In this document: positions 12,751 through 17,423 of the stretch, one piece after another
Numbering within the stretch: the stretch's first letter is position 1
Layout: the number at the start of each line of letters is the position of its first letter
Assembly: GCA_964583985.1 (NCBI GenBank)
Contig: CAZOYD010000066.1
Span: 1 to 18,092 of the forward strand
Direction: 5' to 3'
Source of the DNA: an uncultured archaeon
GTDB taxonomy: Archaea > Asgardarchaeota > Lokiarchaeia > Sigyniarchaeales > SOKP01
DNA: 18,092 bases
The notes under the pieces: model-generated
Database searches by the model: none
What the model was told of the DNA's origin: nothing
Seen by the model: the letters and a program-made list of their open reading frames with translations, nothing else
Translations under genes and position numbers: made by a program

Positions 12751-12969
12751 TTAATCTGGATAATATAAAAACCCCCCTATAAATCTTGTTGACAGGTATT
12801 CATCAAAGAATTTGTTGCGTTGAAAAGAGTTGATAACATAACCATTTTAATTTTAAAATTGAATGAAATTCAGAATAAAATTAGCCAAAATCTAAATAAA
12901 AGTATAAAAAGTATAAAGAAAAAAAATAAAATTCTCGAAGGAAATTCACTTCCTGGATGAATTTATGGT

Positions 12970-13012
12970 TTAATCCACCATGTCTTCAAAAGCTTCAAGG
13001 ACTAACTCAATT
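12970..13012 (-). repeat. Direct repeat of the SCP2 3' exon (copy of 14205-14247)
   Basis: ttaatccaccatgtcttcaaaagcttcaagg(a/g)ctaactcaatt; 42/43 identical, 1235 bp apart. Confidence 0.95.
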
Positions 13013-13132
13013 CCCACATCTGGTTGTGACACTTTAGCAAAGCGGAGTCTGTGTCGTAATATCACCGAAGGATCCAGATTACATTACGGCACAATCGTAG
13101 CGGCGCGAGTTGCGTACAACCTGATGAAGTAA
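13013..13132. other. GC-rich (~48%) long imperfect hairpin; possible ncRNA, intron or element end
   Basis: Outer arms catctggttgt (13017-13027) / acaacctgatg (13116-13126). Inner arms tgtgtcgtaat (13050-13060) / attacggcaca (13083-13093). Confidence 0.65.
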
Positions 13133-13180
13133 AATGATTACAATTTTTAAAAATGATTTATATGCATGCGTGATTGAACC

Positions 13181-13274
13181 TAATTCTTCTGAACCCATGA
13201 TATCGAGAATTGAAGTAGCGATTCCATTTGCAGGATAAAATGGAATGATCCCTTTAATTGGCAATGCTTGACTA
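13181..13274 (-). pseudogene. Internal fragment of an alpha/beta hydrolase gene, homologous to 11051-11144
   Basis: Ungapped alignment 78/94 nt. Translates IKGIIPFYPANGIATSILDIMGSEEL versus IKGIVPLYPANGIATSILGIPGSEDL in the intact gene. Confidence 0.9.
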
Positions 13275-13775
13275 TTAGTGAATGTTTTCTTCATACTTTT
13301 TCAAATCAATAAAGAGAATAGAGTTATTCTTCCGATCTCGAAACCATTCAAATCCCATATTTACCTTTTCTAAGTAATAGTTTTTCATATCTAGAGTTGT
13401 TTCCACTAACAATAAGCGACACGCAATGATTTTACTTGCTTCTAATGATTTTTCTAAGGCGATTTTTATCAATGTATTTCCGAGGTTCTTATGTTTATAC
13501 TTTTTATCTACACCTAAGCGACCGAGAAGTACTATTGGTACTTTATCAATTCCAAATATACGTGCATCTCCTGTATTTAACTGGGAAGCAGAAAGTGTTA
13601 AAAAAGCAATTACAATATTAGAATCTTTCAAACAAAATACATATGTTTTTGAAAGCTTTCGTTCTTGATTGAGGAGAGCTAGATCAGTTAAAAAAGAGTT
13701 AATGACTCGTTCCCCACAGTCAAAAGATTCAATAATAGCGTCTTTATCTAATTGTTTAAAAAGTAAATCCGTCAA
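13275..13775 (-). CDS. GNAT-family toxin (AtaT/TacT-like acetyltransferase)
   Basis: SFDCGERVINSFL, SKTYV, PIVLLGRLGVDKKYKHKNLGNTLI, CRLLLVE are characteristic of GNAT toxins of type II TA systems; TTG start. Confidence 0.82.
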   Translation of the reverse strand: MTDLLFKQLDKDAIIESFDCGERVINSFLTDLALLNQERKLSKTYVFCLKDSNIVIAFLTLSASQLNTGDARIFGIDKVPIVLLGRLGVDKKYKHKNLGNTLIKIALEKSLEASKIIACRLLLVETTLDMKNYYLEKVNMGFEWFRDRKNNSILFIDLKKYEENIH

Positions 13776-13789
13776 TTGAAAAAGCCCTT

Positions 13790-14035
13790 TTATAATTTCT
13801 CAATTTCTTCTAATGATATTGTATATTCCTTCTCTTCCAAATTTTGATAGAACTGGTGTGAAGATTTAAAAAAAGAATGAGTTCTTTCATCAATTACTCG
13901 ATTTTCAAGTTTGTTTTCAAGATCTTGAATCTCGTGTTCGGTTAAAATGATCTCTTCAGAATCATCAAAGTAGAAGTTTTCTTCAGATATTTTCTCTTCT
14001 TTTTTCATTTGTTTTTCTTTTGGGGTTGTCATCAT
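13790..14035 (-). CDS. Putative acidic antitoxin upstream of the GNAT toxin
   Basis: 81 aa, very acidic, 14 nt upstream of the toxin. EEIILTEHEIQDLENKLEN resembles the toxin-binding C-terminal part of DUF1778 antitoxins. Confidence 0.6.
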   Translation of the reverse strand: MMTTPKEKQMKKEEKISEENFYFDDSEEIILTEHEIQDLENKLENRVIDERTHSFFKSSHQFYQNLEEKEYTISLEEIEKL

Positions 14036-14130
14036 AATATATATTGCAATATTCCTATAAATGATTTATTATCAGGACTCGATTATATCCATAATTCTAA
14101 AATTTTTTTTAGAATAAATAAATTTAAATT

Positions 14131-14169
14131 AAAAAAAAAAATTAAATATAAAAAATAGAATAAAAAAAA
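14131..14169 (-). terminator. Oligo-T tracts downstream of the reconstructed SCP2 stop
   Basis: A10 (14131-14140) and A8 (14162-14169) runs on + are T runs on the minus strand, starting ~35 nt after TAA at 14205. Confidence 0.45.
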
Positions 14170-14204
14170 GTAAAGATAATTAACGATATGGATATATTAT
14201 TGAC

Positions 14205-14692
14205 TTAATCCACCATGTCTTCAAAAGCTTCAAGGGCTAACTCAATTTAAGAGGTTTGAGGGATTTCCTCAAATTTTATCTCTTGGAAAGCCATTGCGTC
14301 TTGAAGATTACCTTCTACTGTAATATCACCAGCCATATAGGCACTTGTGGCGTTTTAGCGCTGTTTAGAATTTAAACTAGCTCAACTTCGCCAAACAACA
14401 TGCCTGCACCAACTTCTTGGGTTGCGGAAAATGTGAAAGATGGATTGTCAACAACACCTTCTCCGAATTCAAGAGTGCCATCATGAGCTTTTAGCCAAAA
14501 TTTAGCGTCTTTATCGGTTATGATCATTTGAATAACGATATCCATGTCTTCTAATTCTTCTTTGAGGTCTTCGTTTTCTTCAGCAATTTGCTTGAATAGT
14601 TCGAATACTTTTAAAGAATCAGCAGGTGATGCTGCTGCTGCTCCAGCGTCAAACTTTCCTTTCATTTCATTAATTAATGCTTCGTCAACCAT
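14205..14692 (-). CDS. SCP2 sterol/lipid-carrier protein, 142 aa after removal of two BHB introns (exons 14692-14383, 14353-14277, 14246-14205)
   Basis: Exons 310+77+42 = 429 nt give MVDEAL...FGEGVVDNPSFTFSATQEVGAGMLFGEVDATSAYMAGDITVEGNLQDAMAFQEIIELALEAFEDMVD*. This includes the SCP2 C-terminal signature G.xD...AxMxGxIxVxG that is missing from the listed 110-aa ORF. Confidence 0.88.
14247..14276 (-). other. 30-nt BHB-type intron 2 in the SCP2 mRNA
   Basis: CAA-GAGA-TA^A-aaTTTGAGG aaatc CCTCAAAcc-TCTT-AA^A-TTG; removal gives GAG ATA ATT GAG (E-I-I-E) and deletes an in-frame TAA. Confidence 0.85.
14354..14382 (-). other. 29-nt BHB-type intron 1 in the SCP2 mRNA
   Basis: TGGCG-AAGT-TG^A-GCTAGTTTA aattc TAAACAGC-GCTA-AA^A-CGCCA; removal gives GTT GAC GCC (V-D-A). 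Confidence 0.82.
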
Positions 14693-15121
14693 TTTGATTT
14701 TCAACCTTCTTTTATAGTTTTGTACTTATTTTGATTGTTAGGTTATAATAAATACTATTAAGTATAACTTTTTACTATATAAAAAGATTATATTTCTTCT
14801 TATATAATATAGTAAAATTGGAATGCATTACTTTTTTAAATTACTATTTTTTTCGTCGGTAATAGAAAAGTTTTAGAGGGAGAAACATGATAAATATCTT
14901 GATAAGGGTAAAAACTTAAAAAGTTGTTTTCAAAAATGTAAATGCATTAACAACTTTAAATATACGTGAAGAGATGAAGGATTTTTCTTGCGTGTATTAC
15001 TTAAACCATAAAAATAAAAGCATTTAATCAATGAGAATAATAAAACTTTGCTTTAAAATAAATTAATACACTCCTATCATATTTTAATTCAGAATCATTG
15101 CTTTTCTGGGTGTTTTGACAA

Positions 15122-16276
15122 ATGATAAAGAAGAACAGAAAAGATTATTTAGAAATCAAGAATGAATTGAAGATTTATTTTGATAAAATTTTTGATAATT
15201 ACCCTGATATACCAGAGAACCTTCCTAGCTTAAGAAATATAGGTAATATGTTCAAAGTCGCAAGAAACTTTGTAAAGAAGTATCTCTTAAGTGAATATAT
15301 TTCATTGCACTTTGATGAAGATCCTTCTGAATTATACTCCCGTTACTGGCCAAAAACGCGTTCTGAAAAAATAGATGAGATTCATGATAAACTAATTGAA
15401 GAATTTAGTTATCAATTTAATAGGTATTATCCCAATGAAATAGAATGTATTTCTACAATAGGGCAATTATCTAAAAAATATGGAGTTGGATTTATTTCTA
15501 TCAAAGTATGGCTAATGGATTATATTAAAGAAATATTTGAAATTAATATCGCTGAAAAGATATATACTGAAATCTTTCCAACATTATCATCACAATCACC
15601 TTCTTATACTGATATCAAATGCCTTATTGAGAGCAGACAAGGTCAGTTGTTAACATGTGAAACTGACTGGAATAATATGAAAGAACAGCCTACAAAAAGA
15701 TATATTGACATAAAATGCAAATTTGGGCACAATTGGAGCCCTACCATTAACGGTTTATTATATGATAATCGATGGTGTCCAACTTGTAATGAAAGTAAAG
15801 GAGAACAGTTAACACGAATGTATATGGAGGCAATCTTTTCAAAGATTTCTGGGAATCCTATAAAATTTCCAACTGTTACACTTTATAATGCATTTCATAT
15901 TGATGTTAATAGAGGAGGAAGGATGCATTTTGACGGATATAATCCAAATGTAAAAATAAGGAAAAAATTTTTCAGAATTGCTTTTGAATATGATGGAAAA
16001 CAGCATGATACATACCCAAATTCAATCCATAGAAAATTTTCAGAATTTCAAGAACTGCAGAAAAGGGATAAGTTAAAAGAAACTATATGTAATCTACTTA
16101 AATTTAAAACAATCTTAATTAGAATTAAAGAAATCTTGGGTTTTAATTGTTCTAATCCTCAAAGTTTTCAAACTGAAATTATTCGACAATTTCAAAAAAA
16201 CACGGGAATAAAGATTTCTAATTTGCCTATGCTGGAGTATAATATACTTGAAAATAATTTAAATAGAAAAAAGTAA
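15122..16276 (+). CDS. Putative free-standing endonuclease: two N-terminal HTH-like repeats, Zn ribbon, Vsr/DUF559-like nuclease domain
   Basis: KCKFGHNW...WCPTC Zn ribbon; ESKGE, FDGY, IAFEYDGKQH, QKRDKLKETIC, LIRI nuclease-type motifs. Confidence 0.75.
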   Translation: MIKKNRKDYLEIKNELKIYFDKIFDNYPDIPENLPSLRNIGNMFKVARNFVKKYLLSEYISLHFDEDPSELYSRYWPKTRSEKIDEIHDKLIEEFSYQFNRYYPNEIECISTIGQLSKKYGVGFISIKVWLMDYIKEIFEINIAEKIYTEIFPTLSSQSPSYTDIKCLIESRQGQLLTCETDWNNMKEQPTKRYIDIKCKFGHNWSPTINGLLYDNRWCPTCNESKGEQLTRMYMEAIFSKISGNPIKFPTVTLYNAFHIDVNRGGRMHFDGYNPNVKIRKKFFRIAFEYDGKQHDTYPNSIHRKFSEFQELQKRDKLKETICNLLKFKTILIRIKEILGFNCSNPQSFQTEIIRQFQKNTGIKISNLPMLEYNILENNLNRKK

Positions 16277-16372
16277 ACAGATAAAAAATAGTACCCATAA
16301 TTCTAATATTAAGTGATTAGAAACATTATACCCTCCTCTTATATAAATTCCAGAAATTTTTATTTCTAGAAT

Positions 16373-17245
16373 ATGCTTGAAAAAAGTGAGTCTCTTGCTG
16401 AGATGTTAGGGATAATCCTTGGAGATGGTCGTCTGAGATGGGATCCCACAGGAAGGCATTATCAATTGGATGTCATTCTAAATTGGGTTGAAGAAAAAGA
16501 TTATGTCCTTTATGTTAATGATCTTATGATGAGATTATTCCAATATAAACCTAAATTATCAAGGCAAATAAATGAGGATGGTTCAATAGGAAAGGGTATA
16601 TATCTTACTATTTATAGCAAAAAACTAGTCTATGAACTAATATCCTTAGGTTTAATACCTGGAAATAAAGTAGAGAACCAAATCAAAGTCCCAAAATGGA
16701 TTAAGGAATGCAAATCCTATATGATAGCGTGTTTAAAAGGACTATTTGATACTGATGGTTCCATATTTCCTGTCATAAAAGAAGGTGCAATTAAAATGAA
16801 TTTTAAAAATGGATCTCTATCTTTAGTTGAAGATTTCAAAGAAATGACAGAATTATTTGAAATCAAGACATCAAAAATATCTTCTTACTCTGAGATTACG
16901 GAAAAAACAAATGAATTCTCAATTACCTTTATTTTACAGATCCAAGCAAGAAACCAAGTGAAAAAGTTCCTAGATATTATAAATCCTATGAAATGGGAAT
17001 ATCGAAAAGAATATTTATTAAAAATAATAACGAATCCTTTTGATTATACTATGGAATATTATTCTGATAGTGATATTGAAAATTGGATATTACTTTATGA
17101 AAAATTTAAATCTTATAGGCTAGTTAGTGAATGCATATTGAAAGAACAAGGAAAATCTCCGAAAATTGATACAATACGATTACGAATAAAAAAATATTTT
17201 GGTGAGAAATATGAAAAATGGCTAAAAGATGTTAAAAGTATGTAA
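16373..17245 (+). CDS. Free-standing two-motif LAGLIDADG homing-endonuclease-like protein
   Basis: LAEMLGIILGDG and ACLKGLFDTDG motifs, with GL.PGNK...IKVPKWI between them. No intein splicing blocks. Stop lies 17 nt from the tRNA 3' end. Confidence 0.88.
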   Translation: MLEKSESLAEMLGIILGDGRLRWDPTGRHYQLDVILNWVEEKDYVLYVNDLMMRLFQYKPKLSRQINEDGSIGKGIYLTIYSKKLVYELISLGLIPGNKVENQIKVPKWIKECKSYMIACLKGLFDTDGSIFPVIKEGAIKMNFKNGSLSLVEDFKEMTELFEIKTSKISSYSEITEKTNEFSITFILQIQARNQVKKFLDIINPMKWEYRKEYLLKIITNPFDYTMEYYSDSDIENWILLYEKFKSYRLVSECILKEQGKSPKIDTIRLRIKKYFGEKYEKWLKDVKSM

Positions 17246-17279
17246 TTGAATTGATAAGTGATTGGCGCCCACACCGGGA

Positions 17280-17309
17280 ATTTCATCGCGTATGGTTTTC
17301 ATACGCGGA
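17280..17309 (-). other. tRNA intron at position 59/60 (T-loop), near-canonical BHB
   Basis: CCGGG-TTCA-AA^T-cCGCGTATG aaaac CATACGCGa-TGAA-AT^T-CCCGG; splicing restores TTCAAAT. Confidence 0.9.
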
Positions 17310-17355
17310 TTTGAACCCGGGTCGCAGGAGTGACAGTCCCGAATGCTGGACCGGA

Positions 17356-17385
17356 TTATGCGTGAGGTTTGAAGCAATCCTTACT
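17356..17385 (-). other. tRNA intron at position 15/16 (D-loop), relaxed BHB
   Basis: GTGT-AG^A-GTAAGG attgcttcaaa CCTCAC-GCAT-AA^T; central helix GTGT/GCAT; no clear outer helix. Confidence 0.8.
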
Positions 17386-17423
17386 CTACACTATGTGGGC
17401 AAAATGTTTTTAAATACTAAAAG

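Follow-up and report, generated by a model that had tools for sequence, protein, structure and literature searches.

The 18,092-nucleotide (nt) stretch of DNA analyzed here, referred to as the window, is the entire contig C66, one of the 138 contigs of a 3.8-Mb genome obtained as a metagenome bin. On its minus strand lies a gene of the SCP2 family interrupted by two inserts of 29 and 30 nt. Sequence comparisons make it likely that these inserts are real, spliced mini-introns of the bulge-helix-bulge (BHB) type residing in a working gene, and the full SCP2 protein is probably made only after the tRNA-splicing enzymes have cut and rejoined the mRNA. An earlier reading of the window, made from its letters only (the sequence-only reading), had proposed such a two-intron mRNA, and its main claims are taken up below together with the results that bear on them.

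Read without splicing, the SCP2 open reading frame (ORF) terminates with GEVELV and a stop codon, and the missing C-terminus lies downstream in two pieces behind the inserts, at the positions proposed in the sequence-only reading. The start of exon 1 corresponds to that of the homologues, which begin with MVDEAL. The unspliced coding region including both inserts is 488 nt long; joining the exons of 310, 77 and 42 nt yields 429 nt coding for 142 amino acids (aa), and no other lesion was found in it, again as claimed. The joined protein is identical to P0002, which is encoded without interruption by the metagenome contig L109, and the expected collinearity of orthologues with the spliced form was thus confirmed. 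The window and L109 genes are separated by 34 synonymous and no non-synonymous codon differences (10 and 0, respectively, in exons 2 and 3), with exon 3 identical to the same stretch of L109. The predicted exon junctions read GGCGAAGTTG joined to ACGCCACAAG for the first and CCAAGAGATA joined to ATTGAGTTAG for the second, and the protein across the two joints is predicted to contain GEVDATSAY and the peptide AFQEIIELALEAFEDMVD.

The joined sequence matched positions 1-100 of the 101 of the Pfam SCP2 profile (PF02036) with 51.1 bits at a cut-off of 21.3, and exon 1 alone matched positions 1-72 with 21.6 bits. In the AlphaFold model, with a predicted local distance difference test score (pLDDT) of 95.6, five strands and a long C-terminal helix are present, and exons 2 and 3 supply the helix 105-111, the last strand (114-118) and the 22-residue C-terminal helix, which begins in exon 2. 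As modeled, the joined product is a full-length member of the SCP2 family with the SCP2 fold. Because residues 101-132 are invariant in 33 orthologues (76-96% identity), the inserts occupy the best conserved stretch of the protein. Asp104 is among these invariant residues and its codon is split by insert 1 after the first base (G-AC). Only one close SCP2 copy is present in this genome and it carries both inserts. The truncated form, P0001 (106 aa), is recorded on 8 contigs, in line with the earlier expectation that automated annotation would call the gene truncated.

The register used to describe the inserts was taken from tRNA introns and comprises, on each strand, four central-helix bases followed by a 3-nt bulge cut after its second base. 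Such cuts at both window junctions reproduce the sequence of the intron-less orthologues. The outer helix, 4-nt central helix and two 3-nt bulges described in the sequence-only reading are present in both inserts, albeit in relaxed form only, with an A.A mismatch in insert 1 and a 2x2 internal loop in insert 2; both motifs are relaxed BHBs and not textbook ones. The outer helix of insert 1 (UGGCG/CGCCA) is extended by RNAfold to ~14 bp, and its inner hairpin has 3+5 bp, a single bulged A and a loop of 5 nt; both helices are strong. Insert 2 possesses the central helix GAGA/UCUU with 4/4 pairs (one of them G.U), the bulges UA-A and AA-A (the hyphen marks the cut) and a 3-bp outer helix CAA/UUG. 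The folds constrained to the BHB shape differ from the minimum free energy by +1.8 and +0.2 kcal/mol. Relaxed BHB forms have been reported as substrates of the (alpha-beta)2 form of the tRNA-splicing endonuclease EndA with an L1 loop (PMC5829648). An alternative cut of insert 1 (central helix GGCG/CGCU, 32-nt intron, product GEN-ATSAY) was rejected, as it keeps the frame but deletes a residue invariant in the 33 orthologues. The stretches that encode NLQD (exon 2, 14300-14312) and AFED (exon 3, 14213-14225) on the minus strand are reverse complements and fold as a 9-bp helix enclosing insert 2; intron-less alleles have the same helix, and this region may offer ready-made outer helices.

Table 1. 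Features of the SCP2 locus in the window and insert sites in related SCP2 alleles (positions refer to the window)
Feature	Position	Strand	Remarks
Exon 1	14383-14692	minus	310 nt; codons 1-103 and first base of Asp104; start ATG at 14692
Mini-intron 1	14354-14382	minus	29 nt, phase 1; TAA after ELV when read unspliced
Exon 2	14277-14353	minus	77 nt; remainder of Asp104 through Ile129
Mini-intron 2	14247-14276	minus	30 nt, phase 0, in frame, TAA at its end
Exon 3	14205-14246	minus	42 nt, 13 codons and TAA; second half of C-terminal helix
BHB 1, 5' half (exon 1)	14383-14393	minus	outer UGGCG 14389-14393; central AAGU 14385-14388; bulge UG 14383-14384
BHB 1, 3' half	14348-14359	minus	central GCUA 14356-14359; bulge AA-A 14353-14355; outer CGCCA 14348-14352 (exon 2)
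BHB 2, 5' half (exon 2)	14277-14285	minus	outer CAA 14283-14285; central GAGA 14279-14282; bulge UA 14277-14278
BHB 2, 3' half	14243-14252	minus	central UCUU 14249-14252; bulge AA-A 14246-14248; outer UUG 14243-14245 (exon 3)
Displaced old exon 3 copy	12970-13011	minus	41/42 identical (Ala to Val)
DNA between present exon 3 and old tail	13012-14204	minus	absent in L109, L110, L120, L001, L007
GNAT acetyltransferase ORF	13275-13775	minus	166 aa; phrog_1758, 2e-25
81-aa ORF	13790-14035	minus	no family
2.3-kb insertion between SCP2 and tRNA-Asp	14976-17259	plus	relative to L109, L110, L120, L007
384-aa ORF	15122-16276	plus	no family match
LAGLIDADG_3 protein	16373-17245	plus	within the 2.3-kb insertion
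tRNA-Asp(GUC)	17263-17400	minus	2.6 kb from SCP2; two 30-nt non-canonical introns
tRNA-Asp intron, D-loop region	17356-17385	minus	
tRNA-Asp intron, T-arm	17280-17309	minus	
Insert site after GEV			window, L143/L022b
Insert site after SAY			L022a, two copies in L060
Insert sites after DITV and after QDA			L139-141
Insert site after QDA			L155
Insert site after FQE			L172
Insert site after FQEI			window, L007/L058, L143/L022

A comparison of ~190 SCP2 gene copies revealed interruptions in eleven loci, which represent eight distinct alleles, some copies being identical. The inserts found in these related Lokiarchaeia are 29-34 nt long and occupy six or seven sites within the same 40 codons (Table 1), three of the sites being in phase 1. 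All eight intron-bearing alleles are otherwise intact and encode proteins of 142-144 aa. The apparent internal stops of L027 and L029 were dismissed as ordinary ends of uninterrupted genes. Insert 1 is missing at exactly this place in L001, L002, L003, L109 and L110. Insert 2 of the window is 28/30 identical in L007/L058, a different 30-nt hairpin occurs at the same site in L143/L022, and the intron-less relatives lack insert 2. The second SCP2 copy of L060 (L060:1324-1655, minus strand) contains after SAY a 32-nt insert, located 17 nt further on than insert 1 of the window, which shares with it a 15-nt hairpin core with one mismatch; this could be due to chance in AT-rich sequence or to a hairpin that moved.

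For 11 inserts, the borders were fixed by alignment to intron-less genes alone. All 11 showed one register, with 3-4 of the 4 central pairs and cuts after the second bulge base, so the EndA cut rule invoked in the sequence-only reading fits at borders defined by homology. The product of the per-insert chance values was 3.9e-9 for ten inserts and ~8e-8 when eight were taken as independent. The genes of the window and L143 are 31% divergent over the first 270 nt, and their copies of insert 1 show 7 differences, which comprise two compensatory pairs (4 differences) and 3 unpaired bases, with no broken pair. The helices of insert 1 are 100% paired across the window and L143, and 20-45% paired with the partners slid. 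The comparison of these two sequences indicates that the fold of insert 1 has been conserved through compensatory change. In insert 2, both changes relative to L007 fall in unpaired bases. The codons after the first insert, summed over the eight alleles and compared with their nearest intron-less relatives, contain 89 synonymous and 7 non-synonymous differences. These counts point to purifying selection on exons 2 and 3, as opposed to the neutral evolution that would have spoken against the proposal.

The host possesses genes for the presumed splicing enzymes. By the names of its homologues, Promethearchaeota or Lokiarchaeota, it is a Lokiarchaeia/Promethearchaeota archaeon, which agrees with the Asgard-like host suggested earlier. 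The enzymes are two EndA paralogues above the Pfam cut-off, encoded at L189:1453-2076 and L190:1423-2040 and alpha-like and beta-like by NCBIfam and PDB matches, and an RtcB ligase (557 bits) in L191. The best counterpart of one paralogue is the catalytic subunit of the heterotetramer from Aeropyrum pernix (3p1z_B); the other paralogue is more distant and partly beta-like. The Asgard EndA has been reported as an (alpha-beta)2 type with an L1 loop giving broad specificity (PMC5829648).

Similar inserts occur elsewhere in the genome. The tRNA-Asp(GUC) gene of the window, detected by neither ARAGORN nor Rfam, becomes a normal 78-nt tRNA-Asp(GUC) when both of its inserts are removed. Its introns share the register of the SCP2 inserts, form 4/4 central pairs and have inner helices that are just as loose; L109, L120 and L007 lack the D-loop intron, and L110 has it. 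The sole RNase HII gene (G000:C1:127200-127829, minus strand) contains a 30-nt in-frame insert with a TAA between DEAGR and GP, which obeys the cut rule with a central helix of four G.U pairs and a 9-bp hairpin. In the genome, which is rated 100% complete, ARAGORN found only 22 tRNA genes, 13 of which contain introns. Non-canonical introns probably conceal many more, and the finding fits the Asgard tRNA genes described as heavily interrupted in a recent preprint (bioRxiv 10.64898/2026.10.13.758758). The N-terminal domain of uL11 (G000:C27:35660-35779, minus strand) matches its profile only from position 20 and below the cut-off.

It can be inferred that the SCP2 mRNA is cut and joined in the following way. 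The coding region would be transcribed whole, and each insert with the adjoining exon bases would fold into a relaxed BHB, in which exon pairs with exon in the outer helix, four bases of the exon and four of the intron form a central helix of 3-4 bp, and two bulges of 3 nt each and a hairpin within the intron complete the structure. The two-subunit EndA of the host would cut after the second base of each bulge. RtcB would then join the exons, restoring the codon of Asp104 and the 429-nt ORF, and the two introns would be released, probably as circles.

Several observations weigh against this proposal. The nearest relatives, L109 and L110, have neither insert; the inserts may have been acquired recently, in which case some of the selection signal could be older than they are. 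Contig C47 encodes a paralogue (51% identity), and the duplication of exon 3 shows that the 3' end of the gene has been rearranged. Archaeal ribosomes may load before splicing and make the truncated protein. The motifs themselves are imperfect: the central helix of insert 1 (AGU/GCU) comprises 3 bp and the A.A mismatch, that is 3/4 pairs, with bulges UG-A and AA-A, and the 5' bulge of insert 2 is widened by the 2x2 internal loop that precedes a 7-bp hairpin. Finally, the fold alone proves nothing, because decoy motifs are equally common in this AT-rich genome. The genome-wide scan suggested by the sequence-only reading gave equal counts for real and decoy rules: BHB motifs that on removal merge open frames formed 8286 clusters under the real rule versus 7858 and 8310 under decoy rules in the loose search, and 92 versus 77 and 76 in the strict one. 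Nearly every gene end yielded a match, and no intron count could be derived. A paralogue-based tblastn screen of 3196 ORFs was too insensitive: it yielded only 6 candidates, from two families, and did not recover SCP2. The case thus rests on homology.

Could the interrupted gene simply be a young pseudogene, killed by two hairpin insertions that nothing removes while the C47 paralogue covers its function? Such a fate would suit the intron-less state of the closest relatives and the two larger insertions that the locus has taken up. It would also suit the RNA data, since in four public runs no read or contig crossed either spliced junction of this allele; run X14 yielded no contig here (runs X1-X16 stem from salt-marsh sediment, the habitat of this organism), the X19 contigs cover 14600-14793 only, and the single X22 contig (14284-14342, 3 mismatches) continues into an intron-less relative and is uninformative on this allele. 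However, decay is unlikely given eight independent intron-bearing alleles without a second lesion and with the excess of synonymous differences downstream. Insert 1 has persisted long enough for two compensatory pair changes, the cut rule fits all 11 inserts, and the same kind of insert is carried by the single-copy RNase HII gene and by tRNA-Asp. Somewhat less probable still is the removal of the inserts from RNA by another nuclease-ligase pair or by an unfamiliar ribonucleoprotein instead of EndA and RtcB. The departure of the motifs from the strict BHB would favor it, but their bulge and central-helix register is exactly that of EndA substrates and of both tRNA-Asp introns in the window, and the genome has the EndA type of broad specificity (PMC5829648). 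In addition, 29-30 nt is too short for self-splicing introns.

The inserts might also stay in an mRNA that is never cut and be skipped by the ribosome. Translational bypassing is known from T4 gene 60 and from the mitochondrial byp elements of Magnusiomyces, which the inserts resemble in the length of 29-34 nt, the early stop after the break and the hairpin. Nevertheless, only base-exact joining of RNA restores the invariant Asp104, and ribosomal hopping is on this ground practically excluded: phase-1 sites encode the conserved residue only after base joining, and hopping would put Asn or some other residue in its place. Neither insert is flanked by matching take-off and landing codons, and the exon-intron central helix, present in all 11 inserts, is not a prediction of bypassing. 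The least probable explanation, with hardly any weight left to it, is an assembly or sequencing artefact. Although the genome is a metagenome bin of many contigs, the inserts are real DNA, because an independently assembled 349-nt contig from run X1 covers both of them (14206-14554) with 0 mismatches and because homologous inserts are carried by other genomes and metagenomes; the sequence-only reading had named assembly errors as a possible refutation. Splicing of the inserts by EndA and RtcB is consequently preferred here.

The inserts behave as gained or lost elements, since close relatives lack them and other lineages have different ones at neighboring sites. For every intron-bearing allele, the nearest relatives lack introns, and within the genus the close orthologue is interrupted in three of the genomes searched (G000, G022 and G023). 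The differences that set an intron-bearing allele apart from its nearest intron-less relative are concentrated next to the inserts. Within 48 nt around the site, 14 were counted for insert 1 of the window, 11 and 13 for L139 and 10 for L172, versus an average of 3-5 per 48 nt in control intron-less pairs of like divergence; insert 2 of the window shows no such excess. The excess may mean that stretches of exon travel together with the intron, or that synonymous sites have become adapted to base pairing. The motif-forming flank codons GGC..GACGCC, GAGATA and GCGTAT are rare in intron-less genes (9, 5 and 10 of 143, respectively). L143, considered as the donor of the intron 1 tract, is a fit (5 differences in 48), and so are some intron-less alleles (4); no donor can be named. 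A second copy of either insert, as expected for an element resembling miniature inverted-repeat transposable elements, was absent from the 3.8-Mb genome.

The 3' end of the gene has a history of its own. Behind the displaced old copy of exon 3 comes the native 3' flank, which in L109, L110, L120 and L001 adjoins the gene directly. The two tails form repeat D1 (12898-13012 versus 14133-14247), in which the duplicated stretch begins one base before the 3' splice site of insert 2. An insertion of 1235 nt separates the gene body from the old tail and comprises the present exon 3, a new flank, the 81-aa ORF and the GNAT ORF; the latter two could be a putative toxin-antitoxin pair. L007 has the same insert 2 without the 1.2-kb cargo, and either state may have come first. 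A tentative possibility, well short of an even chance, is that the mini-introns are mobile at the DNA level and enter the conserved stretch of the gene with a donor exon tract or with a whole replacement tail. This suggestion is based on the edge of the exon 3 duplication at the 3' splice site of intron 2 and on the concentration of differences mainly in the 24-40 nt beside the introns; if the two tails recombined, a mini-intron alone would remain. In the mitochondrial atp6 gene of Allomyces, the gene tail was replaced by inserted mobile DNA. As a lead, this case resembles SCP2 in that a fresh 3' end precedes the inserted DNA and the old tail persists downstream as a remnant. In SCP2, by contrast, the fresh tail is joined to the gene body via a mini-intron, and an acetyltransferase pair makes up the cargo in place of a proven endonuclease.

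The other insertion at the locus, between SCP2 and tRNA-Asp, encodes the 384-aa ORF and the LAGLIDADG_3 protein (Table 1). LAGLIDADG homologues adjoin SCP2 in L006 and L177 too. A link between LAGLIDADG and the introns was rejected, as the L006 homologue lies beside intron-less SCP2 genes, and L007 and L110 have no LAGLIDADG gene yet contain an SCP2 or a tRNA intron. In most genomes of the same genus (L002, L005, L006, L009, L010, L012-L016), this SCP2 gene forms a tandem pair ~730 nt apart, whereas the window contains only one copy; in L007, 16 codons at 1238-1285 are left of a second one.

In the literature searched, archaeal protein-coding genes count as uninterrupted, with cbf5 as the sole documented spliced coding sequence (PMC2738675, PMC7714728), and nothing was found there on mRNA introns in Asgard archaea. 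The crenarchaeal cbf5 (Watanabe 2002; Yoshinari 2006; Yokobori 2009, PMC2738675) shares with SCP2 a short intron in the coding sequence, an exon-intron BHB, a host with hetero-oligomeric EndA and a patchy distribution among relatives with gain and loss. It differs in having one intron in one gene and splicing shown by experiment, whereas in SCP2 there would be two introns per mRNA, with six or seven sites in 40 codons across relatives and an Asgard host, and splicing is inferred. The Haloferax volcanii HVO_1309 mRNA is likewise processed by EndA, as shown in vivo and in vitro, but its intron lies in the 5' untranslated region and the euryarchaeal host has an alpha'2 enzyme (PMC7714728). The non-canonical BHB introns of archaeal tRNA genes, those of Asgard archaea included, resemble the SCP2 inserts in size class, cut register, relaxed motifs, repeated lineage-specific gains and presumed enzymes (bioRxiv 10.64898/2026.10.13.758758; PMC5829648); the preprint does not treat protein genes (bioRxiv 10.64898/2026.10.13.758758). 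In contrast to these introns, the host RNA of the SCP2 inserts is a translated mRNA, in which removal must restore the frame and competes with translation.

A further parallel is offered by the eukaryotic HAC1/XBP1 mRNAs, which are cut by IRE1 and ligated by RtcB or Trl1, the XBP1 intron being 26 nt long. As proposed for SCP2, a protein endonuclease acts there at RNA structures, a tRNA ligase joins the exons, and the removal of a tiny intron changes the C-terminal frame. Unlike in SCP2, the nuclease is IRE1, the motif consists of two 7-nt loops and the process is regulated by stress; SCP2 splicing is not known to be regulated. New in the case presented here are the patchy occurrence of the inserts among close relatives, the unusual divergence of the exon flanks and the old exon 3 copy 1.2 kb downstream.

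Gene callers report such genes as truncated, as P0001 exemplifies, and therefore hidden errors are to be expected in Asgard proteomes and metabolic reconstructions. Relatives use neighboring sites, and even close ones may have or lack the inserts; the gain and loss of introns could therefore be studied at the population scale. If the mini-introns proved mobile, a turnover of mRNA introns in Asgard archaea, including gain, spread and loss, would be serviced by the tRNA-splicing machinery. If the proposed splicing of SCP2 is true, the archaeal group closest to eukaryotes would have split genes whose mRNAs must be spliced by a protein enzyme.
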